Assembly (NCBI RefSeq): GCF_011045215.1
Contig: NZ_CP049201.1
DNA: 64,000 nucleotides
From: Escherichia coli
GTDB taxonomy: Bacteria; Pseudomonadota; Gammaproteobacteria; Enterobacterales; Enterobacteriaceae
Reading direction: 5' to 3' (one strand)
Below are positions 29,827 through 64,000 of the stretch, one piece after another. The notes below the pieces were generated by a model. That model did not search any database. It was given only the letters and a program-made list of their open reading frames with translations, and was not told where the DNA came from. The translations under genes were made by a program, and so were the position numbers. The first letter of the stretch is position 1, and each line of letters starts with the position of its first letter.

Positions 29827-29957
29827 TCAAGCCGCAGCAGATCTGCTTTCGGGCAGGTCTGCTCATCCTCCTCAGGCAATACCTCTTACAGCAATTAGTT
29901 CTTCTTCCTCACTTTTCCGCTACAATTATCAACAAGTTGAATCGATAAGAGGCGGTA

Positions 29958-40484: not shown

Positions 40485-41030
40485 CGTAGGCCGGATAAGG
40501 CGTTCACGCCGCATCCGGCATCCGAGCACCATTGCCTGATGCGACGCTTACGCGTCTTATCAGGCCTACAAACCTGTGCCTGAACCGTAGGCCGGAGAAG
40601 GCGTTCACGCCGCATCCGGCATCCGAGCACCATTGCCTGATGCGACGCTTACGCGTCTTATCAGGCCTACAAACCTGTGCCTGAACCGTAGGCCGGAGAA
40701 GGCGTTCACGCCGCATCCGGCATCCGAGCACCATTGCCTGATGCGACGCTTACGCGTCTTATCAGGCCTACAAACCTGTGCCTGAACCGTAGGCCGGAGA
40801 AGGCGTTCACGCCGCATCCGGCATCCGAGCACCATTGCCTGATGCGACGCTTACGCGTCTTATCAGGCCTACAAACCTGTGCCTGAACCGTAGGCCGGAG
40901 AAGGCGTTCACGCCGCATCCGGCATCCGAGCACCATTGCCTGATGCGACGCTTACGCGTCTTATCAGGCCTACAAACCTGTGCCTGAACCGTAGGCCGGA
41001 GAAGGCGTTCACACCGCATCCGGCAGTCAT
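40485..41030. repeat. tandem array of REP-containing units (BIME-like), five full 101-bp copies plus a degenerate sixth
   Basis: Unit cgtaggccggagaaggcgttcacgccgcatccggcatccgagcaccattgcctgatgcgacgcttacgcgtcttatcaggcctacaaacctgtgcctgaac recurs starting at 40485, 40586, 40687, 40788, 40889 (period exactly 101 bp); generates the identical 76-aa track ORFs on the minus strand. Confidence 0.9.
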
Positions 41031-44782: not shown

Positions 44783-46075
44783 ATGATGAACACGGAAGGT
44801 AATAACGGTAACAAACCTCTCGGTCTATGGAACGTCGTTTCCATCGGCATTGGGGCAATGGTGGGGGCGGGGATCTTCGCGCTGCTGGGGCAGGCTGCGT
44901 TGCTAATGGAAGCCTCGACATGGGTCGCCTTTGCTTTTGGCGGTATTGTGGCGATGTTTTCCGGTTATGCCTATGCGCGTCTGGGGGCGAGCTATCCCAG
45001 CAATGGCGGCATTATCGACTTCTTTCGTCGCGGATTAGGCAACGGCGTCTTTTCGCTGGCGCTCTCGTTACTGTACCTGTTGACGCTGGCGGTGAGCATC
45101 GCCATGGTCGCCCGTGCTTTTGGCGCTTATGCCGTGCAGTTTTTGCATGAAGGCAGCCAGGAGGAGCACCTTATTTTGCTCTACGCGTTGGGGATCATTG
45201 CGGTGATGACGCTTTTCAACTCCTTAAGCAACCATGCGGTAGGGCGGCTGGAAGTGATCCTCGTCGGCATTAAAATGATGATCCTGTTATTGCTGATTAT
45301 TGCCGGTGTCTGGTCGCTGCAACCGGCGCATATTTCCGTCTCTGCGCCCCCCAGCTCCGGTGCGTTCTTCTCCTGTATCGGGATAACCTTCCTTGCCTAT
45401 GCGGGCTTTGGCATGATGGCGAACGCGGCGGATAAAGTGAAAGATCCGCAGGTCATTATGCCACGGGCGTTTCTGGTGGCGATTGGCGTTACCACGTTGC
45501 TTTATATCTCGCTGGCGCTGGTTTTGCTTAGCGATGTATCGGCATTAGAGTTAGAAAAATATGCCGATACCGCCGTAGCGCAGGCAGCTTCTCCGCTGCT
45601 CGGGCATGTGGGTTATGTGATCGTCGTCATCGGCGCTTTACTGGCGACGGCTTCAGCCATCAACGCGAACCTGTTCGCCGTGTTTAACATCATGGACAAC
45701 ATGGGCAGCGAACGCGAACTGCCGAAGCTAATGAATAAATCCCTGTGGCGGCAGAGTACCTGGGGCAACATCATTGTCGTGGTGTTGATTATGCTGATGA
45801 CGGCGGCACTAAATTTAGGCTCACTCGCCAGCGTTGCCAGCGCCACCTTTTTGATTTGCTATCTGGCGGTGTTTGTGGTGGCGATCCGCCTGCGTCATGA
45901 TATTCACGCCTCGTTGCCGATTCTTATCGTAGGTACGTTGGTGATGTTGTTGGTGATCGTTGGCTTTATCTACAGCCTGTGGTCCCAGGGCAGCCGTGCG
46001 TTGATATGGATTATTGGTGCAATCTTACTCAGCCTTATTGTGGCAATGGTCATGAAGCGTAATAAAACCGTATAA
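44783..46075 (+). CDS. ybaT: APC-superfamily amino-acid transporter YbaT
   Basis: 430-aa polytopic membrane ORF 3 nt downstream of glsA (probable operon). Confidence 0.9.
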   Translation: MMNTEGNNGNKPLGLWNVVSIGIGAMVGAGIFALLGQAALLMEASTWVAFAFGGIVAMFSGYAYARLGASYPSNGGIIDFFRRGLGNGVFSLALSLLYLLTLAVSIAMVARAFGAYAVQFLHEGSQEEHLILLYALGIIAVMTLFNSLSNHAVGRLEVILVGIKMMILLLLIIAGVWSLQPAHISVSAPPSSGAFFSCIGITFLAYAGFGMMANAADKVKDPQVIMPRAFLVAIGVTTLLYISLALVLLSDVSALELEKYADTAVAQAASPLLGHVGYVIVVIGALLATASAINANLFAVFNIMDNMGSERELPKLMNKSLWRQSTWGNIIVVVLIMLMTAALNLGSLASVASATFLICYLAVFVVAIRLRHDIHASLPILIVGTLVMLLVIVGFIYSLWSQGSRALIWIIGAILLSLIVAMVMKRNKTV

Positions 46076-46412
46076 CACCTCTCTGTGCGCAGTACTTTCT
46101 GTACTGCGCCTTTGTCTTTAATTCAAATTACCTTTCTTATTCCTTTAATAAATAAGTCACAAAAAAATGATATATACGCGATAAATCTGTGATGCTAATC
46201 ACTTATTACCGTGGATTATTCTTAATGTGTATGATGGTAATCTAAAAGTCGTAGTGTATTCTAAATAAATAACGTATAAGCTTTTTAGCTGCATTTCTTT
46301 GCCCATATCAATGATCGACAAAAGAGATGCACAAGTTATTACCCTTCTTAATAAAATGAGACTGGTTATAAAAACCAGTTAAAATAATGACCTGGAAGGA
46401 AGTGACTTACCT

Positions 46413-47768
46413 ATGGCGCGATTCCAGTTTAAAAACCGTAAAAATAATGGACTTATTTTTTTAATAAGTTTTATGGTGATGGGAGAAGCTGCAATTGCTG
46501 CACCGCTGCCACAATGGGCGAATGCCCCAGCGGTAACGCCAGTTGCCCGATTATCTTTACAGGAAAGTATATTACGCGCCTTTGCGCGAAATCCCGACGT
46601 CACTCAACAGGCGGCGCAGATAGGCATTGGCGAAGCGCAAATTGATGAAGCCAAAAGTGCCTGGTATCCGCACGTTGGATTAACCGGCAACGCGGGGCCG
46701 TCCCGACAAACGGACTCCAGCGGCAGGCTTGATAACAACGTTTCGTATGGCATAACCCTGACACAACTGGTGTATGACTTTGGTAAAACTAACAACGATA
46801 TCAATCTGCAAACTGCCGCCCGTGACAGCTACCGCTTTAAATTGATGGCTACCTTAACCGATGTTGCAGAGAAAACGGCGACTGCCTATATGGAAGTCAG
46901 TCGTTATCAGGCTTTGTGCGATGCGGCTCAACGCAATATTCACTCGCTGGAAAACGTCTACAACATGGCGGCATTGCGCGCTAACGCTGGCCTGAACTCA
47001 TCGTCGGATGAATTACAGGCCCAGACGCGTATTGCCGGAATGCGCTCAACGCTGGAGCAATATCAGGCGCAGATGGCGAGCGCCAAAGCGCAACTGGCGG
47101 TGCTCACTGGCGTACAGCCAGAGGCGATAGCCGCGCCACCTGCTGAATTAGCCGAGCAGCCGGTATCGCTGAAGAATATTGATTACCAGTCCATCCCGCT
47201 GGTGCTGGCGGCAGAAAACTTACGCCAGTCAGCACAGTACGGCGTGGAAAAAACGAAAGCGCAATACTGGCCAACGCTCAGTATTCAGGGGGGTAAAACG
47301 CGCTACCAGACCAGCGACCGCTCGTATTGGGATGATCAGCTACAACTGAACGTTAACGCGCCGCTGTATCAAGGCGGCGCGGTTTCTGCCCAGGTGCAAC
47401 AGGCCGAAGGGCAACAAAAAATCTCTGCCTCGCAGGTCGAACAGGCAAAACTGGATGTGCTGCAACGAGCGTCTGTGGCATATGCGAACTGGACCGGCGC
47501 ACGGGGTCGCGAAGAAGCCGGTTTAGCGCAATCCGAAAGTGCGCACAAAACGCGAGATGTGTACCAAAATGAATATAAATTGGGTAAACGCAGTCTGAAT
47601 GATCTATTAACCGTCGAGCAAGATGTCTTTCAGGCGCAATCGGCTGAAATAAATGCCAATTATGATGGCTGGGTCGCCGCCGTAAATTATGCCGCTGCGG
47701 TGAATAACCTTATTCCTTTAGCGGGAATTAAACAGGGCTTATACAACGACTTACCCGACTTGAAATAA
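46413..47768 (+). CDS. TolC-family outer-membrane channel, probable type I secretion outer membrane protein
   Basis: 451-aa ORF with N-terminal signal-like hydrophobic segment (LIFLISFMVMGEAAIAAP); TolC-like composition and helical repeat pattern (LSLQESILRAFARNPDV, ...YDFGKT..., coiled-coil Q/A-rich segments); sits immediately upstream of the giant repeat protein gene; preceded by an AT-rich region. Confidence 0.7.
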   Translation: MARFQFKNRKNNGLIFLISFMVMGEAAIAAPLPQWANAPAVTPVARLSLQESILRAFARNPDVTQQAAQIGIGEAQIDEAKSAWYPHVGLTGNAGPSRQTDSSGRLDNNVSYGITLTQLVYDFGKTNNDINLQTAARDSYRFKLMATLTDVAEKTATAYMEVSRYQALCDAAQRNIHSLENVYNMAALRANAGLNSSSDELQAQTRIAGMRSTLEQYQAQMASAKAQLAVLTGVQPEAIAAPPAELAEQPVSLKNIDYQSIPLVLAAENLRQSAQYGVEKTKAQYWPTLSIQGGKTRYQTSDRSYWDDQLQLNVNAPLYQGGAVSAQVQQAEGQQKISASQVEQAKLDVLQRASVAYANWTGARGREEAGLAQSESAHKTRDVYQNEYKLGKRSLNDLLTVEQDVFQAQSAEINANYDGWVAAVNYAAAVNNLIPLAGIKQGLYNDLPDLK

Positions 47769-47870
47769 TCCTGCCATTATTAATAGTGGGCCGTTGTTAA
47801 GTGATTACCTTTGTCTTATTTAGATAAATGGACTCGCTAAGGATGTGCGCCATTTATCAGGAATGCTATT

Positions 47871-50800
47871 ATGAGCCTGATTATTGATGTTATTTCGCGT
47901 AAAACATCCGTCAAACAAACGCTGATTAATCCTGGCGACGTCACGGTTGTTATTTATGAGCCTTCCGTGGTGCAGGTTCATGCTCAGGCCTCTGCCGTTG
48001 CGCGTTACGTCCGTGAAGGAAATGACCTGCTGATCTATTTGCAGGACGGCACGGTGATCCGCTGCAACGGTTATTTCCTGCAAGCGGCGAATACAGCTGA
48101 ACAATCGGAACTGGTGTTTGCCGATGGTCAACAGCTAACCCATGTCACCTTCGCCGATACTGCTGCGGGTGGATTAGCCCCCGTAGAACTGACTGCCCAG
48201 ACCACTGCGATTGAAAGCATTGCGCCATTTCTTGATACCGTTGCTCAGACCAGCGCCTTCCCGTGGGGTTGGCTGGCGGGGGCGGCGGTAGGTGGCGGTG
48301 CGCTTGGTGCACTGCTGGCAAGCGGTGGCGATGGCGACTCGAAAACAGAAGTGATTAATAACCCTACGCCACCTGCTGAGCCTGGCAACGCCACACCATC
48401 ATTTTTAGTTACCGATAATCAGGGCGATCAGCGCGGCATTCTCGCCACCAATGACATCACCGATGACACCACGCCAACCTTTAGCGGCAGCGGGCAGGCG
48501 GGGGCGACTATTCAGATTAAAGACAGTAACGGCAATACTATTGCCAGTACTCAGGTAGACAACAACGGTCACTGGAGTGTCTCGTTACCCACGCAAAGTG
48601 CAGGTGAACATACCTGGTCAGTGGTGCAAATTGTCGGCAGTACCATCACTGACGCCGGTTCGATAACGTTAACCATCGACAATAGTCAGGCCAGCGTGCA
48701 GGTTGCCACCACCGCAGGCGATAACATTATTAACGCCAGCGAACAGGCCGCCGGGTTTACGCTTTCTGGCACCAGTAGCCATCTGGCACAGGGAACAGAA
48801 CTCACCGTCACACTTAACGGCAAAACCTACACCACCAGCGTAGGCGCTAACGGTGCCTGGAGCGTGCAGGTGCCGACCGCCGATGCACAGGCGTTAGGCG
48901 AAGGGAATCAGGCGGTACTGGTCAGTGGGAAAGACACCACAGGCAATACGGTCACCGGCGCGCAGCTGCTAACGGTCGATACCCAACCGCCAACGCTTGC
49001 CATCAACACCATCGCTCAGGACAACATCATCAGTGCTGCGGAACATAACGTCGCGCTGGTACTGAGCGGCACGTCGAATGCAGAAGCGGGGCAAACCGTA
49101 ACACTGACCGTCAACGGGAAAAGCCATACAGCAACCGTCGGTAGCGACGGAACCTGGCAAGTGACGCTGCCTGCCACGGAAGTCCAGGCACTGGCGGAGG
49201 GTAATTACGCTGTCAATGCCAGTGTCAGCGATCGGGCAGGGAACACCACCAGCCACAGCGCGAATCTCACGGTAGACACCTCAGCACCCGTGGTCAGTGT
49301 TAATACCGTGGCGGGCGACGATATTCTTAATAATGCCGAGCAGGCCGTCGCGCAGATCATCTCCGGACAAGTTAGCGGTGCTTCTCCTGGCGATACGGTA
49401 ACGGTGAAATTGGGCACTCATGTCCTGACGGGCATCGTGCTGGCAGATGGCAGCTGGAATGTGGCGTTGGACCCGGCGGTAACCCGCACGCTGGATCGCG
49501 GAGCCAATACGATTTTCGTCACCGTGACAGATGCTGCAGGAAATACTGGCGCGGCGTCTCGAGCAATCACGCTGGTCGGTGTTTCTCCGTTGATCACCAT
49601 TAACACCGTCTCCGGCGATGACATTATCAGTGGCGCAGAAAAAGGTGCGCCACTGACCCTTACCGGTAGCACTCAACAGGCTGAGACAGGACAAACCGTC
49701 ACAGTAACCCTGGCTGGACAGAGTTTTACCACTACCGTGCAGGCCGATGGCTCCTGGAGTCTGACGGTACCTGCCGCCGCGATGGGAAATCTGCCTGACG
49801 GCGCGGTGGCGATTACCGCTTCTGTGACGGATCTCAGCGGCAATACCGGCAACACCTCCCGCACCATTACCGTCGACAGCCAGGCCCCGGCCTTAAGCAT
49901 TGATCCACTGACCGCTGATAACATCATTAACGCCGCCGAAAGCGGGCAGGATCTGCCCATCACCGGCACCACCGACGCTCAGCCGGGGCAGACGGTGACC
50001 GTTACGTTAAATGGGCAGACGTATCAGGGCGTCGTGCAGCCAGACGGCACCTGGAGCGTGACTGTGCCCGCCGCCAACGTGGGCGCACTGGCTGACGGCA
50101 ACGCTACGGTCACCGCCAACGTGAACGATGTCGCCGGTAATCCGAGCAGCGTCTCACGCGTGGCGCTGGTCGATGCCACGCCGCCGGTGGTGACCATTAA
50201 TCCGGTGGCGACCGATAACGTCATTAACACGCCGGAACATACCCAGGCGCAAATCATCAGCGGTACGGTTACTGGCGCTCAGGCGGGCGATATCGTCACC
50301 GTGACGCTGAATAATGTGAATTACACCACGGTGGTGGATGGTTCCGGCAACTGGAGCCTGGGCGTTCCGGCCTCGGTGGTCAGTGGGCTGGCGGACGGCA
50401 GTTATCCTGTCAGCGTCTCGGTAACCGACAAAGCCGGAAACACGGGCAGCCAGTCACTGACTGTCACGGTCAATACCGCAGCGCCCCTTATCGGCATTAA
50501 CAGCATTGCGGGCGATGATGTGATTAATGCCAGCGAAAAAGGGGCCGATCTCCAGATTACCGGCACCAGCGATCAGCCAGTGGGTACCGCCATCACCGTG
50601 ACGCTCAACGGGCAAAACTATGCGGCGACGACCGATGCCTCCGGCAACTGGAGCGTCAACGTTCCGGCATCGGCGGTAACCGCACTGGGCCAGGCCAACT
50701 ACACGGTAACGGCGGCGGTAACCAGCGATATCGGCAACAGCACCACCGCCAGCCATAATGTGCTGGTCGACAGCGCGCTGCCCGGCGTGACCATTAACCC

Positions 50801-53800
50801 GGTGGCAACCGATGATATTATTAACGCCGCCGAAGCGGGCGTGGCGCAAACCATCAGCGGGCAGGTGACTGGAACCGCCGTTGGCGACGCGGTAACCGTG
50901 ACGCTGGGCGGTAATACCTACACCACCACCGTGCAGGCCGGCTTAAGCTGGAGCGTGGACGTTCCGGCGGACGCTATTCAGGCGCTGGGTAATGGCGATT
51001 TAACGGTTAATGCCTCGGTCACCAATCAAAACGGCAACACCGGCAGCGGCACGCGGGATATCACCATCGACGCCAATCTGCCCGGCCTGCGGGTCGATAC
51101 GGTGGCGGGCGATGATGTGGTCAATATCATCGAGCACGGGCAGGCGCTGGTGATTACCGGCAGCAGTTCGGGGCTGGCAGAAGGCACGCCGCTTACCGTT
51201 ACGATTAATAATGTGGAATACACCACTGCGGTGCAGGCCGATGGTAGCTGGAGCGTGGGCGTCACGGCGGCGCAGGTTAGCGCCTGGCCTGCGGGGACGG
51301 TTAATATTGCCGTGTCCGGGGAAAGTAGCGCCGGAAATCCGATAAGCATTACGCATCCGGTAACGGTGGATCTCACTCCGGCGGCTATCACCATCAACAC
51401 TATCGCCACGGACGATGTGATTAACGCTGCAGAAAAAGGGGCTAATTTAACTCTTTCCGGCACCACCACTAACGTAGAAGCAGGGCAAACCGTCACTGTC
51501 ACCTTTGGCGGTAAAAATTACACCGCCAGCGTGGCGGGCGATGGTAGCTGGACTGCCACCGTTCCCGCCGCCGATCTGGCGGCATTACCGGAAGGCAGCG
51601 CCTCCGCTCAGGCCAGCGTCAGCAATATCAACGGCAATAGCGCCTCGGCGGTGCATAACTACAGCGTCGACAGCAGCGCGCCAACCATCATTATCAATAC
51701 CGTCGCCAGCGACAATATCGTCAACGCCAGCGAAGCCGATGCGGGTGTGACGGTGAGCGGCAGCACCACCGCTGAAGCGGGGCAGATTGTTACGGTAACG
51801 CTCAATAGCCCGACCGTGCAGACGTATCAGGCAACGGTACAGGCGGACGGCAGCTGGAGCATCAATATTCCGGCGGCAGATCTTGAGGCATTGACCGATG
51901 GCAGCCACACCCTGACCGCGACGGTCAATGACAAAGCGGGCAACCCGGCGAGCACCACGCATAATCTGGCGGTGGATCTCACCGTCCCGGTACTCACCAT
52001 CAATACCATTGCGGGCGATGACATTATTAACGCCGCCGAGCACGGACAGGCGCTGGTGATTTCTGGTTCCAGCACAGGCGGAGAGGCGGGAGATGTCGTC
52101 ACCGTCACGCTAAACAGTAAAACCTACACCACGACGCTGGATGCCTCCGGCAACTGGAGCGTCGGTGTTCCGGCGGCGGATGTCACCGCGCTGGGTAGCG
52201 GCCCGCAAACCATCACTGCCAGCATTACCGATGCGGCAGGTAATAGCGACAGCGAAACGCACACGGTCACCGTTAACCTTACCGCGCCGACCATTGGCAT
52301 TAACACCATCGCCACCGATGACGTGATTAATGCCACCGAAAAAGGCGCAGATCTGCAAATCTCCGGCACCAGTAATCAGCCAGCGGGCACCACGATTACG
52401 CTGACGTTTAACGGGCAAAATTACACCGCCACGACGGACGCCGCAGGTAACTGGAGCACCACGGTGCCAGCCTCTGCCGTCGGTGCGCTGGGCGAAGCCA
52501 GCTACACGGTGACGGCGAACGTCACCGACAGCGCAGGCAACAGCAATTCCGCCAGCCATAACGTGCAGGTCAATACCGCGCAGCCTGGCGTCACCATTAA
52601 TCCGGTTGCGACTGACGATATTATTAACGCCGCCGAATCGGGCAATGCGCAAACCATCAGCGGTCAGGTAACGGGCGCGGCGGCGGGCGATACCGTCACC
52701 GTGACGCTTGGCGGGAAAACCTACACGGCTACCGTGCAGGGGAATCTAAGCTGGAGCGTGGATGTTCCGGCTGCGGATATTCAGGCCATCGGTAATGGCG
52801 ACCTGACTGTTAACGCCTCAGTGACCAACGGCGTTGGCAATACCGGCAGCGGTTCGCGAGATATTACTATCGACGCCAACCTGCCTGGCCTGCGCGTCGA
52901 TACCGTGGCGGGCGATGATGTGGTTAACAGCATCGAACACGGTCAGGCACTGGTGATAACTGGTAGCAGCAGCGGGCTGGCGGTGGGCGCGGCGCTGACG
53001 GTGGTGATCAATAACGTCACCTATGGCGCGACAGTATTAGCCGATGGCACATGGAGCGTTGGTGTTCCGGCGGTAGACGTGAGTAACTGGCCTGCGGGTA
53101 CGGTGAATATCACGGTAAGTGGCACTAACACAGCCGGAACAACATCCACCATTACCCATCCGGTCACCGTCGATCTGGCGGCGGTGGTGATTTCCATTAA
53201 CACCATCTCCGGCGATGATGTGATTAACGCCGCCGAAAAAGGGGCAGATTTAACCCTTTCCGGCAGCACCTCCGGCGTAGAGCCAGGGCAAACGGTCACC
53301 GTCACCTTTGGCGGCAAAACCTACACCGCCACCGTAGCAGGCGATGGTAGCTGGACAACCACCGTACCTGCCGCCGATCTCAGCGTGTTACGCGACGGCG
53401 ACGCCACGGTACAGGCCAGCGTCAGCACTATTAACGGCAACACGGCTTCGGCAACCCACGCTTACAGCGTTGATGCCACTGCCCCGACGCTTGCCATTAA
53501 TACCATCGCCACCGACGATATTCTGAACGCCGCCGAGGCGGGCAATCCGCTAACCATCAGCGGCAGTAGCACCGCTGAAGCGGGGCAGACGGTAACTGTC
53601 ACGCTTAATGGCGTGACTTACACCGGCACCGTCCTGGCGGACGGGAGCTGGAGCGTCAGCGTGCCGACGGCGGATCTCAGCAATCTGACCGCCAGCCAGT
53701 ACACCGTCAGCGCCTCGGTAAACGATAAAGCGGGTAACCCGGCATCCACCACTCACGGGCTGGCGGTGGATCTCACCGTGCCGGTGCTGACCATCAACAC

Positions 53801-56800
53801 CGTCTCCGGCGATGACATTATTAACGCCGCCGAACACGGACAGGCGCTGGTGATCTCCGGCTCCAGTACTGGCGGCGAAGCGGGCGATGTCATCACCGTC
53901 ACGTTAAACAGTAAAACCTACACCACCACGCTGGATGCCTCCGGTAACTGGAGCGTCGGCGTTCCGGCGGCAGATGTCACCGCACTTGGCAGCGGCCCGC
54001 AAACCATCACGGCCACGATTACGGATATCGCGGGTAATAGCGATGATGCTAGCCGCACGGTCACCGTAAATCTCACCGCGCCAACCATTGGCATCAACAC
54101 CATCGCCACCGATGACGTGATTAACGCCACGGAAAAAGGCGCGGATCTGCAAATTACCGGCACCAGTAATCAGCCCGCGGGCACCACCATTACGGTGACG
54201 TTGAACGGGCAAAATTACACCGCTACTACCGATAGCAACGGCAACTGGAGCGCCACGGTGCCAGCGTCAGCGGTTAGCACGCTGGGTGAAGCTAACTACA
54301 CGGTAACCGCGAACGTCACCGACAGCGCAGGTAACAGCAATTCCGCCAGTCATAACGTGCTGGTCAACAGCGCCTTGCCTGCCGTCACCATTAACGCGGT
54401 GGCGACCGACGATATTATTAACGCTGCCGAAGCGGGCAATGCGCAAACCATCAGCGGGCAGGTGACGGGTGCCGCGGCGGGCGACACGGTTACCGTTACG
54501 CTGGGCGGCAACACCTACACCGCTACCGTACAGGCTAATTTAAGCTGGAGCGTTAGCGTGCCAGCGGCGGATATTCAGGCGCTGGGCAACGGCGACCTGA
54601 CAATTAATGCCTCGGTCACTAACGTCGTCGGCAACACCGGCAGCGGCTCGCGCGATATCACGATCGACGCCAATCTGCCTGGCTTACGGGTCGATACCGT
54701 GGCGGGCGATGATGTGATTAACAGCATTGAGCACAATCAGGCGCTGGTGATCACCGGTAGCAGCACCGGGCTGACGGCGGGAACGGCGTTAACGGTCGAG
54801 ATTAACAACGTTACTTATGGCGCGACGGTGTTAGCCGACGGCACATGGAACCTCGGTGTTCCGGCGGCAGACGTCAGCAACTGGCCTGCGGGTACGGTGG
54901 ATATCACGGTAAGCGGCACCAACAGCGCCGGAACAACCTCCACCATTACCCATCCGGTTACCGTCGATCTGTCGGCAGTCGCCATCACCATTAACACTCT
55001 CTCTGGTGATGATGTGATCAACGCCGTCGAAAAAGGCGAAACGCTGGTCGTAAGCGGCAGCACCAGCGGTGTCGAAGCCGGGCAAACGGTGACCGTCACC
55101 TTTGGCGGCAAAAATTACACCACCACTGTGGAAGCTAACGGTAGCTGGACGGTGAACGTACCGCCTGCCGATCTCGCTGCGCTACCGGACGGTGCGGGCA
55201 ACGTGCAGGCGAGTGTCAGCAACATCAACGGCAATAACGCCCAGGCGGATCGTACGTACAGCGTCGATGCCACCGCGCCACTTGTGACCATCAACACCAT
55301 CGCCAGCGACGATATCCTTAACGTGAGCGAAGCTGGCGCGGGGATCACCATCAGCGGCACTACCACGGCGCAGGCCGGGCAGACGCTGACCGTCACGCTC
55401 AATAATAACACGTACCAGACCACGGTTCAGGCGGATGGCACCTGGAGCGTGAATGTTCCGGCAGCGGATTTAAGCGGATTAACCGCCAGCAGTTACACCG
55501 TGACCGCCACGGTGAGCGACAAAGCGGGTAACCCGGCAAGCGCCGACCACGCGCTGGCGGTGGACGTTACCGCACCGGATCTCACCATTAATACCGTCGC
55601 GGGCGATGACATTATTAATGCCATCGAACACGGTCAGGCGCTGGTCGTCAGCGGAACCAGCACGGGCGCGGCGGCGGGTGATGTGGTCACGGTTAACCTG
55701 AACGGTAAAAACTACACCACCACGCTGGATGCCTCCGGTAACTGGAGCGTGGGCATTCCTGCGGTGGATGTGACGGCGCTGGCAACCGGCAACCAGACCA
55801 TTACCGCCAGCCTGAGCGATCGCGCGGGCAACAGCGACAGCACGACTCACAATGTGACCGTTGATCTCAGCGGCCCGACGCTGACCATCAACACCGTCTC
55901 CGGCGATGACATTATTAATAATGCGGAGAAAACCCAGGACTTGATCATCAGCGGCGGCTCCAGCGGTCTGGCGGCAGGCACTACGGTCACCGTGATGTTG
56001 AACGGCCTGGCGTACAGCGCTACTACCGACGGCTCCGGCAACTGGAGCGTTACCGTGCCTGCTTCTTCGGTTGGCGCGCTCGGCGAGGCGGTGTATCAGA
56101 TTAGCGCCAGCGCCACCGACAGCGCGGGCAACAGTGGCAGCACCACCCATACGGTGAATGTCGAATCGCTCCTGCCTGGGGTAATCATTAATACCGTGGC
56201 GGGCGATGACATTATCAACGCCGCTGAAATCGCTGTGGCGCAGACCATCAGCGGTCAGGTCACGGGGACGGCGGTTGCGGGTAATACGGTGATTGTCACC
56301 ATTGGCGGCAATCAATATAACGCCACCGTGCAGTCAGATTTAAGCTGGAGCGTCAGCGTACCTGCGAACGTTTTGCAGGCGCTGGGCAACGGTGAACTGA
56401 CCATCAGCGCCTCGGTGACTAATTCCGCAAATAATACCGGCACCACAACGCACGACATCGTGATAGATGCCAACCTGCCAGGTCTGCGCGTCGATACCGT
56501 GGCAGGCGATGATGTGATTAACAGCATCGAGCACACTCAGGCGTTGGTGATCACCGGTAGCAGTAGCGGACTGGCGGCGGGCGCGGCGTTGACGGTGGTT
56601 ATCAATAGCGTCACCTACGGCGCAACGGTTTTAGCGGATGGTAGCTGGAGCGTTGGTGTTCCGGCGGCAGATGTCACAAACTGGCCTGCGGGGACGGTCA
56701 ATATTGCCGTCTCTGGCACCAACACCGCCGGAACGACAACCAGTATTACCCATCCGGTGACCGTCGATCTCGCAGCCGTGGCGATCACCATCAACACCCT

Positions 56801-59800
56801 TTCCACTGACGATGTGATTAACGCCGCCGAAAAAGGCAGCGATTTGCAGCTCTCCGGCACCACCTCCGATGTGGAAGCGGGGCAAACCATCACCGTTATC
56901 TTCGGCGGCAAAAGCTACACCACCACGGTTGCCGCGGATAATACCTGGGGGCTGACGATCCCTGCCGCCGATGTTGCAACCTTGCCAGACGGCGCAGCAA
57001 ACGTCCAGGCCAGCGTCAGCAATGTCGCAGGGAACAGCGCCCAGGCAACGCATGCTTACAGCGTTGATGCCACTGCGCCCTCCGTTACCATCAACACCAT
57101 CGCCACGGACGATATTCTTAACGCCGCCGAAGCGGGATCGGCGCTGACCATCAGCGGCACCAGCACGGCGGAAGCCGGGCAGACGGTGACCGTAACGCTA
57201 AACGGCGTTAATTACAGCGGCAATGTGCAGGCAGACGGGAGCTGGAGCGTCAGCGTCCCGACCGGCGATTTAGCTAACCTCACTGCCAGCCCCTATACGG
57301 TGAGCGCAGCGGTCAGCGACAAAGCCGGAAATCTGGCTTCGGCGACGCATAACCTGACGGTGGACCTTGCCGCTCCGGTCGTCACCATTAACACGGTGGC
57401 GGGCGATGACATCATCAACGCCACGGAACACGGACAGGCGCAGATTATCAGCGGCTCGGCAACGGGCGCGACGACGGGTAACACGGTTTCCGTGACGATT
57501 GGCACGACCACCTACGCCACTGTGCTGGACGCCAACGGCAACTGGAGCATCGGCGTACCTGCCAGCGTGATTTCCGCACTGGCGCAGGGTGATGTAACCA
57601 TTACTGCCACGGTTACCGACTCCGCAGGCAACAGTGGCACGGCTTCGCACATTGTCAGCGTGGCGCTCGGCGCGCCGATACTCAGCATTAACACCATTGC
57701 CGTCGACGACATCCTCAACGCCACGGAGAAAGGTGCAGATCTGGCGATTACCGGCACCAGCAACCAGCCCGCGGGTACGCAGATTACCATTACGCTCAAC
57801 GGGCAAAATTACACCACCACTGCCGATGCATCCGGGAACTGGAGCGTAACCGTTCCGGCGTCACGGGTCAGCGCCCTCGGTGAAGCCACTTATACGGTGA
57901 CTGCCGCCGCCACTGACACCGATGGCAACAGCGGTTCCGCCAGCCATAATGTGCAGGTCAATACCGCGCTGCCGGGCGTCACCATTAACGTGGTGGCGAG
58001 CGACGATATTATTAACGCCGCCGAAGCGGGCGCGGGCCAGACCATCAGTGGGCAGGTGACGGGTGCTGCGGCAGGCGATACCGTTACCATAACGCTCGGC
58101 GGAGCGACTTACACCGCTACGGTGCAGGCGAATTTAAGCTGGAGCGTCGATGTTCCGGCCTCCGCGCTACAGGCGTTGGGCAACGGTGAGCTGACCATTT
58201 CGGCCTCGGTAACGAACAGCGTGGGCAATACAGGTAACGGCACGCGCGAAATCACCATCGACGCGAATCTCCCTGGTCTGCGGGTCGACACCGTGGCGGG
58301 CGATGACGTGGTCAACATTATCGAGCACAATCAGGCGCTGGTGATTACCGGCAGCAGCTCCGATCTGGCAGCGGGCAGCAACGTCACGCTGACCATAAAC
58401 GGGCAAACGTATGTTGCGGCGGTGCTGGCGGATGGCTCATGGAGCGTCGGCGTTCCGGCGGCAGATGTCAGCGCCTGGCCTGCGGGGAAGGTCACAATTA
58501 CGGCGAGCGGCAACACCACCGCCGGAAACCCGGTGAGCGTTACGCATCCGGTGACGGTCGATCTCACTGCGGTGGCGGTCAGCATCAACGCCATTACTGC
58601 CGATGACGTGATTAACGCTGCCGAAAAAGGCGCGGCGTTAACGCTCTCTGGCAGCACTACTGGTGTGGAGGCCGGACAAACGGTCACCGTCACCTTTGGC
58701 GGCAAAACTTACAGCGCCACGGTGGCTGCGAATGGTTCCTGGAGCACCTCGGTTCCGGCGGCAGATATGGCGGCCCTGCGTGATGGCGATGCCAGCGCAC
58801 AGGCCAGCGTCAGCAATGTTAACGGCAACAGCGCCACCACTACCCACGCATACAGCGTCGATGCCAGCGCGCCAACGGTGACCATTAACACCATTGCGGG
58901 CGACGACATTCTTAACGCCGCCGAAGCCGGAGCGGCGCTAACCATCACCGGCAGCAGCACGGCGGAAGTGGGGCAGACGGTGACCGTCACGCTCAATGGC
59001 GCAAACTATACCGGCACTGTACAGACGGACGGCAGCTGGAGCGTCAGTGTGCCGCCAGCCGACTTAAGCGCTCTGACCGCCAGCAACTACACCGTTAGCG
59101 CGGCGGTGAGCGACAAAGCCGGAAACCCGGCCTCGGTTAACCACAACCTGACGGTGGATACTTCCGTTCCGGTCGTCACCATCAACACGGTGGCAGGCGA
59201 TGATGTGATCAACGCGACGGAACACGCCCAGGCGCAGATCATCAGCGGCTCCGCCACGGGAGCGGTAACCGGTAGCACCGTGACGGTGACTATCGGCACA
59301 AATACCTTTACCACGGTGCTGGATGCCAGCGGCAACTGGAGCGTCGGCGTCCCGGCAAGCGTCGTCTCGGCACTGGCGAACGGCACGGTGACCATTAACG
59401 CCAGCGTCACTGATGCCGGAGGAAACAGCGGCAGCACCACCCATCAGGTGACGGTCAATACCGGGCTGCCGACCATTACCTTTAACGCTATCAGCGGCGA
59501 TAACGTCCTGAACGCCGATGAAAAAGGCCAGCCGTTGACCATCAGCGGTAGCAGTACGGGGCTGGCGACGGGCGCGCAGGTTACCGTCTCGCTCAACGGT
59601 CACAACTACAGTGCTACCACCGACGCAGCAGGCAACTGGACCTTAACCGTGCCGGTGAGCGATCTGGCGGCTCTAGGCCAGGCCAACTATACCGTCAGCG
59701 CCAGCGCCACCAGTGCGGCGGGCAACACCGCCAGCAGCCAGGCGAATTTACTGGTCGACAGCGGCCTGCCGGGCGTCACCATCAACACCGTAGCGGGCGA

Positions 59801-62800
59801 CGATATTATCAACGCCGCCGAAGCGGGGGCCGATCAAACCATCAGCGGGGTGGTGACTCGCGCCGCCGCAGGCGATACGGTCACCGTGACGCTGGGCGGC
59901 AACACTTACACAGCGCAGGTTCAGGCCGATTTAAGCTGGAGCGTCACCGTTCCGGCAGCCGATTTCCAGGCGCTGGGCAATGGTGATTTGACCATTACCG
60001 CCTCGGTCACCAACGCGAATGGCAACACTGGCAGCGGCACGCGGGATATCACCATTGACGCCAACCTGCCTGGGCTGCGGGTGGATACCGTGGCGGGCGA
60101 TGATATCGTCAACAGTATCGAGCACGGGCAGGCGCTGGTGATCACCGGCGGCAGTAGCGGCCTGAATGCAGGTGCTGTGCTGACGGTTACCATCAACAGT
60201 GTGGCGTATTCCGCCACGGTACAGGCGGACGGGAGCTGGAGCGTCGGCATTTCGGCGGCAAGCGTCAGCGCCTGGCCTGCGGGGCCGTTAACCGTTGATG
60301 TGGCAGGACAGAGCAGCGCCGGAAATCCGGTCAGCGTCAGCCATCCGTTCACCGTCGATTTAACTTCGGTGGCTATCAGCATCAACACCGTTGCCAGCGA
60401 CGACGTAATTAACGCCGCCGAGAAAGGCACCGACCTGACCCTTTCCGGCAGCACCAGCGGGATTGAAAGTGGGCAAACCGTTACCGTCACCTTTGGCGGT
60501 AAAACCTACACCGCAAGCGTCGCCGCCAATGGAAGCTGGAGCGTAACGGTTCCGGCGGCGGATCTGGCAGCTCTGCCAGACGGCGCGGCGAACGTGCAGG
60601 CCAGCGTCAGCAGCGCGAGCGGCAATAGCGCCTCAGCGACTCATGCGTACAGCGTTGACGCCAGCGCGCCGACGCTCACCATTAACACCATCGCCAGCGA
60701 TGACATCCTTAACGCGGCAGAGGCGGGAAATCCGCTGACCATCAGCGGCACCAGCACCGCCGAAACCGGGCAGACGGTGACCGTCACCCTTAACGGCGCA
60801 ACCTACAGCGGTAATGTGCAGGCAGATGGTAGCTGGAGCGTCAGCGTTCCCACTTCAGCCCTGGGCGCGCTCACCGCAAGCAATTATACCGTCAGCGCCA
60901 CCGTCAACGACAAAGCGGGTAACCCCGGCAGCGCCAGCCATAATCTGGTGGTAGACACCACCGCGCCGGTTCTTACCATAAATACCGTGGCGGGCGATGA
61001 CATCATCAACGATGCCGAACATGCGCAGGCGCTGGTGATCTCCGGCACCAGTAGCGGCGGGGAAGCGGGCGATGTGGTGAGCGTTGTGCTCAACGGCAAA
61101 ACCTACACCACCACCCTGGATGCCTCCGGCAACTGGAGCGTCGGCGTTCCGGCGGCGGATGTTACGGCACTCGGTAGCGGTGCGCAGACCATCACCGCCA
61201 GCGTCAGCGATCGGGCAGGCAACAGCGACGACGCCAGCCGCACCGTCACCGTTAGCCTCAGCGCGCCAGTGATTAGCATCAACACCATCGCGGGCGATGA
61301 TGTGATCAACGCGACGGAAAAAGGATCCGATCTGGCGCTTTCCGGCACCAGCGATCAGCCTGCGGGTACGGCGATCACCGTCACGCTGAACGGACAAAAC
61401 TACAGCGCCACTACCGACGCCTCCGGCAACTGGAGCGTTACTGTGCCCGCCTCGGCGGTCAGTGCGCTGGGCGAAGCGACCTACAGCGTCACGGCGAGCG
61501 TCACCAATGCCCAGGGCAACAGCAGCACCGCCAGCCATAACGTGCAGATCAATACCGCGCTGCCGGGCGTCACCCTTAATCCGGTGGCGACGGACGATAT
61601 TATCAATGCCGCCGAAGCGGGCAGCGCACAAACCATCAGCGGCCAGGTAACCGGGGCGGCGGCGGGCAGTACCGTCACCGTTGAACTGGGCGGTAAAACT
61701 TACACCGCCATCGTCCAGGCTGATTTAAGCTGGAACGTGAGCGTACCAGCCGCCGACTGGCAGGCGCTGGGTAACGGTGAGTTAACCGTTAACGCCTCGG
61801 TCACCAACGCCGTTGGCAACACCGGCAGCGGCACGCGCGATATCACCATCGATGCCAGTCTGCCTGGCCTGCGGGTGGATACCGTCGCGGGTGATGATGT
61901 GGTCAATATCATCGAACACAGTCAGGCGCAGGTGATCACCGGCAGCAGCTCTGGCTTTGCGGCGGGCACGGCGCTGACGGTGGTGGTAAATAACCAAACT
62001 TACGCCGCCACGGTGCTGGCGAACGGCAGCTGGAGCGTCGGCGTTCCGGCGGCGGATGTCAGCAACTGGCCTGTGGGAACGCTGAATATTAGCGTTAGCG
62101 GCGCAAACAGTGCCGGAACGCAAACCAGCATTACCCATCCGCTGACTGTTGATCTCACGACCGTCGCCGTCAGCATGAACAGCATCACCAGCGATGATGT
62201 GATTAACGCCGCCGAAAAAGGCGCGGCGCTAACGCTCTCCGGCAGCACGTCTGGCGTCGAAGCGGGGCAAACCGTCACCGTCACCTTTGGCGGCAAAACC
62301 TACACCTCCACGGTGGCGGCTAACGGTAGCTGGAGCACCACCGTTCCGGTTGCGGATATGGCGGCGCTGCGTGACGGCGATGCCAGCGCCCAGGTGCGGG
62401 TGACTAACGTCAACGGCAACAGCGCCACGGCAACGCACGAATACAGCGTCGATAGCGCCGCGCCAACGGTCACCATCAACACCATTGCCAGCGATAACAT
62501 CATCAACGCCAGCGAAGCGGCGGCGGGCGTAACGGTGTCCGGCACCAGCACGGCGGAAACCGGGCAGACGCTCACCGTCACGCTTAACGGCACTAACTAC
62601 CAGACCACGGTGCAGGCAGACGGCAGCTGGAGTTTAACGCTGCCCGCCAGCGACTTAACCGCACTGGCTAATAACGGCTACACCCTGACCGCCACGGTCA
62701 GCGATCTGGCGGGTAACCCTGGCAGCGCCAGCAAAGGCGTGACCGTCGATACCACTGCGCCGGTGATCAGTTTTAACACCGTGGCGGGCGATGATGTGAT

Positions 62801-64000: not shown

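Follow-up and report, generated by a model that had tools for sequence, protein, structure and literature searches.

Results

Gene content of the locus

We analysed a window of 64,000 nt from Escherichia coli (RefSeq assembly GCF_011045215.1, contig NZ_CP049201.1), which a megablast comparison with 5,426 complete E. coli genomes assigned to this species. Downstream of ybaT, from position 46076 to the window end, the DNA carries an AT-rich leader, a gene for an outer-membrane channel of the TolC family and the beginning of siiEA, a gene for a giant adhesin exported by a type I secretion system (T1SS) (Table 1). This region very probably represents the 5′ three-quarters of the known siiEA/O-island 28 locus, an ancestral locus that would have been lost from K-12-type genomes by deletion. 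The locus is already described and named. The initial annotation of the window, made without database searches, had noted the pairing of a channel gene with a giant adhesin gene and had taken it for a type I secretion adhesin locus. This observation is confirmed and its interpretation is supported: the channel and the adhesin exceed the cut-offs of TIGR01844 and NF047714, and the exporter and adaptor genes are found in the relative PapM-32-1.

Table 1. Positions of the locus features and of the upstream gene ybaT in the window
Feature	Position	Strand	Basis
ybaT, final core gene ahead of the locus	44783-46075	+	430-aa open reading frame (ORF); ybaT annotation in syntenic genomes
AT-rich regulatory leader	46076-46412	+	337 bp, 32.3% GC; promoter-like sites at 46328-46385
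ybaT terminator-like hairpin followed by a T-run	46087-46109	+	Terminator scan
RstA box TAATTCAAATTACC	46119-46132	+	Begins 294 bp before the channel-gene ATG; read directly from the sequence
TolC-family outer-membrane channel gene	46413-47768	+	451 aa; TIGR01844, 416 bits against a cut-off of 225.15
siiEA, gene of the giant type I-secreted adhesin, incomplete at the window end	47871-64000	+	Open frame; NF047714; colinear with relatives
BapA prefix-like N-terminal domain, putative retention module	47883-48266	+	aa 5-132; Pfam PF22783 (BapA_N), E = 6.1e-19
T97-A98-A99-G100, di-alanine motif as in LapG-cleaved LapA	48159-48170	+	Read from the sequence
Glycine-rich hydrophobic linker FPWGWLAGAAVGGGALGALLASGGDGD	48258-48338	+	aa 130-156; conserved across genera in alignments
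52 contiguous ~100-aa Ca2+-stabilised immunoglobulin (Ig)-like repeats, linker-free	48489-63998	+	aa 207-5376; segmentation by a gene-derived hidden Markov model (HMM)

Starting at the ATG at 47871, the siiEA frame continues through 5,376 codons until the window ends; the last in-frame stop upstream lies at 47838, leaving 16,160 open bases. An open frame of this length cannot have arisen by chance. The initial annotation had proposed a repeat-protein gene of more than 16 kb with a composition of its own and had named stops or frameshifts as the sign of a pseudogene; none occurs up to the window end, and the GC content of the gene is 60.8%, compared with 52.3% in positions 1-46075. The N-terminus of the protein (aa 1-230) passes the NCBIfam model NF047714 (adhesin_SiiEA, BapA-related; 229 N-terminal positions) with 504.2 bits against its curated cut-off of 425. 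The name siiEA is the RefSeq gene name in syntenic genomes, and the part of the gene in the window is colinear with the intact siiEA of strains PapM-32-1 and JX21CE8. The high GC content follows from the composition of the protein, which consists to 61% of T, A, V, G and S and gives a GC fraction at second codon positions (GC2) of 0.54. At third positions (GC3) siiEA, with 0.71, is near the exporter gene (0.72) and ybaT (0.67).

The channel gene has a GC content of 51.6%, is annotated as TolC family outer membrane protein in 958 genomes, and is separated from siiEA by a gap of 102 bp. Both the gene and the AT-rich leader before it had been predicted from the letters alone, and both predictions hold. 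In O157:H7 the counterpart of this leader drives expression of tolC28, and RstA binding in electrophoretic mobility shift assays requires an RstA box at -294 to -280 (PMC12758282). The box in the window is identical to the experimentally tested O157:H7 box in sequence and position.

Domains and repeats of SiiEA

The N-terminal domain of SiiEA also matches the BapA prefix-like model NF033677 (65.8 bits, cut-off 35). An AlphaFold2 model is all-beta, with predicted local distance difference test scores of 74-91 over aa 1-122. The fold match of this model to solved structures is weak, and the N-terminal 175 aa gave only chance-level matches to Protein Data Bank (PDB) sequences. The linker after this domain forms a low-confidence, unstructured stretch of the model.

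Ig-like repeats make up ~95% of the part of SiiEA in the window, and the window end interrupts the 52nd. Matches to NF033510 (Ca_tandemer) cover 54 stretches of the protein, and Pfam Big_13 also matches the repeats. Among solved structures, the repeats match the Ca2+-dependent RII repeat of MpIBP (PDB 4p99, E = 5e-59) and the RTX adhesins 5irb and 6xi3, and the matches to MpIBP and Lap-type repeats range from E = 1e-43 to 1e-59. A super-repeat of six units, 598 aa (1,794 bp) long, runs through the array at 48489-63998. Units six apart share 66% identity on average and up to 92%, compared with ~43% for neighbours and 43-46% at other spacings, and the array was therefore built through duplication of six-unit blocks. 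Tandem Repeats Finder detected no repeats at 47800-64000, since protein identity between neighbouring units is only ~43%; the repeats were resolved by autocorrelation and by an HMM built from siiEA itself.

Relatives and O-island 28

The closest relative of the window is PapM-32-1, a strain from a Gambian baboon. It shares 99.6% identity with the window over the upstream 25 kb and 99.9% over the leader, the channel gene and the beginning of siiEA. In PapM-32-1, JX21CE8 and O157:H7 86-24, RefSeq gives the order ybaT, TolC-family protein gene, siiEA, T1SS permease/ATPase gene, HlyD-family adaptor gene and cueR. All four locus genes are intact in PapM-32-1, where siiEA has 20,778 nt and encodes 6,925 aa. 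The window stops short of the 3′ part of the locus, and the exporter, the adaptor and the C-terminus of SiiEA were scored in the PapM-32-1 orthologue. Its ATP-binding cassette (ABC) exporter belongs to the LssB type (TIGR03375, 836.7 bits, cut-off 693.1) and its adaptor to the HlyD type (TIGR01843, 328.1 bits, cut-off 208.65). The C-terminal 1,200 residues of its SiiEA contain three FG-GAP repeats, RTX nonapeptides (HemolysinCabind, E = 2.1e-4) and a T1SS target domain (TIGR03661, 38.1 against 17.6). From these relatives we infer that the ABC exporter and the adaptor are also present in the genome from which the window comes.

The initial annotation had named an O157:H7 counterpart at this site, annotated as a putative RTX-family exoprotein with export genes. 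The counterpart is O-island 28, which shares with the window the position between ybaT and cueR, the gene order, and the RstA box with its distance from the channel gene; it is 99.0% identical to the window over 46076-48600 (leader, channel gene and start of siiEA). Its placement is read for the left half of the locus in the window and for the right half in relatives with near-identical flanks. In O157:H7 86-24, siiEA is 618 nt shorter and has a TAG at codon 1462, whereas the codon in the window is GAA (52254-52256) and the frame stays open. The 'two RTX proteins' of O157:H7 are, on this comparison, a single gene split by a nonsense codon. O55:H7 CB9615, which is related to O157:H7, is 94.2% identical to the window over 50000-64000. 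The window protein is no different in kind from other members of the SiiEA family (NF047714), such as ECUMN_0527 of E. coli UMN026.

Allelic variation of siiEA

Compared with PapM-32-1, whose flanks are 99.6-100% identical, the window is identical or nearly so to ~50,000, and from there to the window end the identity is 89-97% per 500 bp. The two alleles differ at 864 of 16,128 nt and by no indel. The differing codons comprise 579 synonymous and 195 non-synonymous changes, and this excess of synonymous changes without indels is evidence that siiEA is maintained. Among the 958 complete genomes that carry the locus, the best identity to 50000-64000 is 94.9%. A segment of 877 bp (56457-57333) is identical to JX21CE8, and only 23 of the 864 variant 21-mers also occur elsewhere in the PapM-32-1 gene. 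By these two results the pattern is a mosaic of alleles that arose through recombination between strains. Assembly error and gene conversion within the gene were considered as sources of the ~5% divergence and rejected on the 21-mer count, the synonymous bias and the identity to JX21CE8.

Distribution of the locus and the scar in K-12

The conserved core gene order that had been proposed up to ybaT is found: by blastn, bases 1-46103 are colinear with K-12 MG1655 at 97.7-99.0% identity, and the sequences part ways beyond. This limit lies 28 bp downstream of the ybaT stop, and the terminator scan locates it, at 46103/46104, within the ybaT terminator hairpin. K-12 has cueR at this place, as the initial annotation had stated, 124 bp past ybaT.

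The leader, the channel gene and the start of siiEA occur in 958 of the 5,426 complete E. coli genomes, in one chromosomal copy each. The K-12 junction is present in 4,458, so that K-12-like genomes do not show the same genes at this site. In carriers the distance from ybaT to cueR is 25,907 bp. The ATG of cueR overlaps the stop of the adaptor gene as ATGA, and cueR is translationally coupled at the end of the locus.

The gap between ybaT and cueR in K-12 retains a trace of the adaptor gene. The final ~95 bp of this gap can be aligned with the adaptor gene's 3′ end at ~92% identity, with a 1-bp deletion. The gap reads VVAVDIRTGKKT in one frame and VLEYLLKPFNKAQEALRER, followed by a stop, in another, and the C-terminus of the adaptor is MVATVDIRTGKKSVLDYLLKPFNKAQEALRER, followed by a stop. 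The relic thus consists of the last ~31 adaptor codons in frameshifted form, at MG1655 513898-513992 (L002 7899-7993). RefSeq annotates a 'hypothetical protein' at this position in many genomes. Literature searches on ybaT, cueR and type I secretion met no earlier description of the relic in the library covered, which is not proof of novelty. Given this relic, K-12 would bear a deletion of ~25.8 kb rather than an unoccupied insertion site. Ancestry followed by loss through deletion thus describes the locus better than insertion of an island, in contrast to the horizontal transfer suggested earlier for O-island 28 (PMC12758282).

Escherichia sp. E1V33 and Escherichia whittamii likewise have copA-glsA-ybaT-channel-siiEA in this order and at this position. 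The E. whittamii copy appears degraded (L009 6001-8064), with the channel in three tblastn pieces and a stop codon in the N-terminal region of siiEA. Related pairs of channel and adhesin genes lie at other genomic places in Enterobacter, Lelliottia, Pseudocitrobacter, Trabulsiella, Rosenbergiella and Budvicia. Further partial deletions were seen in E. coli SCPM-O-B-8794 (L031 6023-9978) and GDSC2227PM, which retain fragments of the channel gene, the siiEA N-terminus and the exporter gene beside the adaptor gene and cueR. The locus has therefore decayed more than once, besides the common K-12-type deletion.

Several observations concern neighbouring DNA and other assemblies. Carriers have a second, small accessory block between cueR and ybbJ (L001 40391-43462; L003 1282-3735; L004 4356-6808) that encodes hypothetical proteins, a lipoprotein and a YadA-like autotransporter adhesin, whereas in K-12 ybbJ directly follows cueR. 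Upstream of the locus, the sole other break in colinearity with K-12 is the adk-hemH intergenic region (29828-29880), which has 53 bp in the window and 157 bp in K-12. At 40485-41025, between ybaQ and copA, a 101-bp tandem unit is present in 5.4 copies, compared with 2.4 at the same site in K-12, and every unit matches Rfam naRNA4 (RF02564), a nucleoid-associated RNA derived from repetitive extragenic palindromic elements. Two short contigs binned as metagenome-assembled genomes of Collinsella sp. and Bacillota, L005 and L034, encode channel proteins 98% and 57% identical, respectively, to that of the window, and L005 also bears the terminal part of ybaT and the beginning of siiEA. Their placement in Gram-positive bins is probably binning contamination.

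Discussion

Proposed function of the locus

O-island 28 of O157:H7 was described in 2025 as an adherence system that is activated by RstA and responds to calcium; its deletion leads to loss of adherence, and adherence, colonisation and Ca2+ dependence have been established for O157:H7 and O145:H28 (PMC12758282). Adhesins of the LapA/MpIBP type are exported C-terminus first, their stalks fold outside the cell in a Ca2+-dependent manner, and their N-terminal module blocks passage through the channel (PMC10990149). A similar sequence of events may apply here. Binding of RstA to its box (46119-46132) would turn on transcription, as demonstrated in O157:H7 and as the identical box suggests for the window. 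The ABC exporter would recognise the C-terminal RTX/T1SS signal of the adhesin, and the unfolded protein would be threaded C-terminus first via the adaptor and the TolC-like channel. Extracellular Ca2+ would then stiffen the ~100-aa Ig-like repeats, of which the window portion has 52, to form a long stalk displaying the distal FG-GAP propeller region. The BapA-type N-terminal domain, as in LapA and MpIBP, might be unable to pass the channel, which would leave the glycine-rich linker threaded and the adhesin tethered. Export, adherence and the effect of calcium rest on the O157:H7 experiments, and tethering is suggested by analogy.

The likeness to LapA/LapEBC of Pseudomonas fluorescens and to MpIBP of Marinomonas primoryensis comprises the BapA/LapA-type N-terminal domain, a candidate di-alanine motif near residue 100, the glycine-rich linker and the long arrays of Ca2+-stabilised Ig-like repeats, which in the window match MpIBP RII 4p99. 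The relatives of the window add the LssB-type ABC exporter and the C-terminal RTX and T1SS target domains. The E. coli locus differs in having no annotated LapG or LapD gene and in the FG-GAP repeats of the distal region. Salmonella BapA (bapABCD) is likewise a giant T1SS adhesin of Ig-like repeats, and its N-terminal domain is of the BapA prefix-like type (NF033677, PF22783), a likeness known by domain models. The order of bapABCD, presumably with the adhesin gene first, differs from that of the locus, and we take BapA to be about half the size of SiiEA.

Several points weigh against this picture. Genes for the LapG protease and the cyclic di-GMP receptor LapD are not annotated within the locus of the relatives. 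The di-alanine motif is also present in Escherichia sp. E1V33 and E. whittamii and is missing from 13 of 13 aligned copies of other genera, and is thus not conserved beyond the Escherichia copies. The functional data all come from strains with a premature stop in siiEA. The 3′ quarter of siiEA, the ABC gene and the adaptor gene lie outside the window and may carry defects like those of the ABC gene in JX21CE8 and of siiEA in O157:H7. We had considered the di-alanine motif as evidence of LapG-type release; it was dropped because the motif is restricted to Escherichia and no protease gene is annotated in the locus. With no LapG or LapD gene annotated there and an Escherichia-only motif, regulated release of SiiEA is unsupported.

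Origin and state of the locus

Our data fit, with fair probability, a history in which O-island 28 is an ancestral Escherichia locus, a single deletion of ~25.8 kb is common to 82% of complete E. coli genomes, among them K-12, and diverged siiEA alleles recombine. The left edge of this deletion would lie in the ybaT terminator, and the right edge would leave the adaptor gene's final ~95 bp in place, perhaps because cueR has its promoter and ribosome-binding site there. Carriers would maintain siiEA repeat alleles of fixed length, ~5% apart and mostly by synonymous changes, and recombination would shuffle these between strains.

The usual 'O-island' reading is that a pathogenicity island was acquired horizontally and inserted between ybaT and cueR in some lineages. 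The locus's occurrence in only 958 of 5,426 complete genomes, the AT-rich leader, the 60.8% GC of siiEA and the related channel-adhesin pairs found elsewhere in Enterobacter, Lelliottia, Trabulsiella, Rosenbergiella and Budvicia would agree with insertion. This origin is nevertheless improbable. The supposedly empty site of K-12 bears the relic of ~31 adaptor codons, which is unexpected of a site that was never occupied, and one junction is common to 4,458 genomes. The window contains no tRNA gene, and no integrase or insertion sequence is annotated in the locus of the relatives. The overlap of cueR with the adaptor stop, the position kept in two other Escherichia species, the 51.6% GC of the channel gene and a siiEA GC3 like that of its neighbours also speak against insertion. 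It is also unlikely that the window holds a decaying, non-functional remnant, as reported for O157:H7 and for enteroaggregative E. coli (EAEC) 042. Its 5,376 codons are free of stops and have GAA where O157:H7 has TAG, all four genes are intact in the closest relative, and the changes relative to other strains are mostly synonymous and without indels. On the side of decay stand the premature stop at codon 1462 in O157:H7 86-24, the frameshift in siiEA of EAEC 042 (PMC2808357), the frameshifted ABC gene of JX21CE8, the broken copy of E. whittamii, and the 3′ end of siiEA itself, which lies past the window.

Names given to the gene have suggested two other functions. The name siiEA derives from Salmonella SiiE of Salmonella pathogenicity island 4 (SPI-4; siiABCDEF), and together with the legacy annotation 'adhesin for cattle intestine colonization' it might be taken to mean a true orthologue that acts like the SPI-4 system. 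SiiE is indeed a giant Ca2+-binding T1SS adhesin of Ig-like repeats. A PDB search, however, retrieved no SiiE chain at E <= 1, that is, the solved SiiE domains have no detectable match, whereas MpIBP and Lap-type repeats were found at far lower values; NCBI classes the protein as BapA-related, and genes like siiA and siiB are not annotated in the locus of the relatives. Orthology with SiiE is thus very improbable. The legacy annotations 'RTX family exoprotein' and 'RTX toxin' imply a pore-forming toxin, which might seem to agree with the RTX nonapeptides near the C-terminus in relatives and with the HlyB/HlyD-type exporters. The locus of the relatives consists of four genes and cueR, with no acyltransferase annotated, Ig-like repeats fill ~95% of the window portion, and deletion in O157:H7 causes loss of adherence (PMC12758282). 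A toxin is accordingly the least credible of these explanations and can hardly be expected.

Significance

Carrier strains owe their largest protein to the locus, which was recently found necessary for early adherence of O157:H7 in the gut. The gene pair in the window is an intact-looking allele of this known adhesin system in a non-O157 E. coli, and the value of the analysis lies in its correct annotation. The findings open no new kind of biology. Their additions are modest, namely the K-12 relic, the conserved position in other Escherichia, the split gene of O157:H7 and the diverged alleles of fixed length. The relic indicates that the pattern of presence and absence among strains is to be read as loss and not as gain, and that the K-12 DNA upstream of cueR is former coding sequence. 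The highly diverged repeat alleles of fixed length could be of interest for research on surface-antigen variation.
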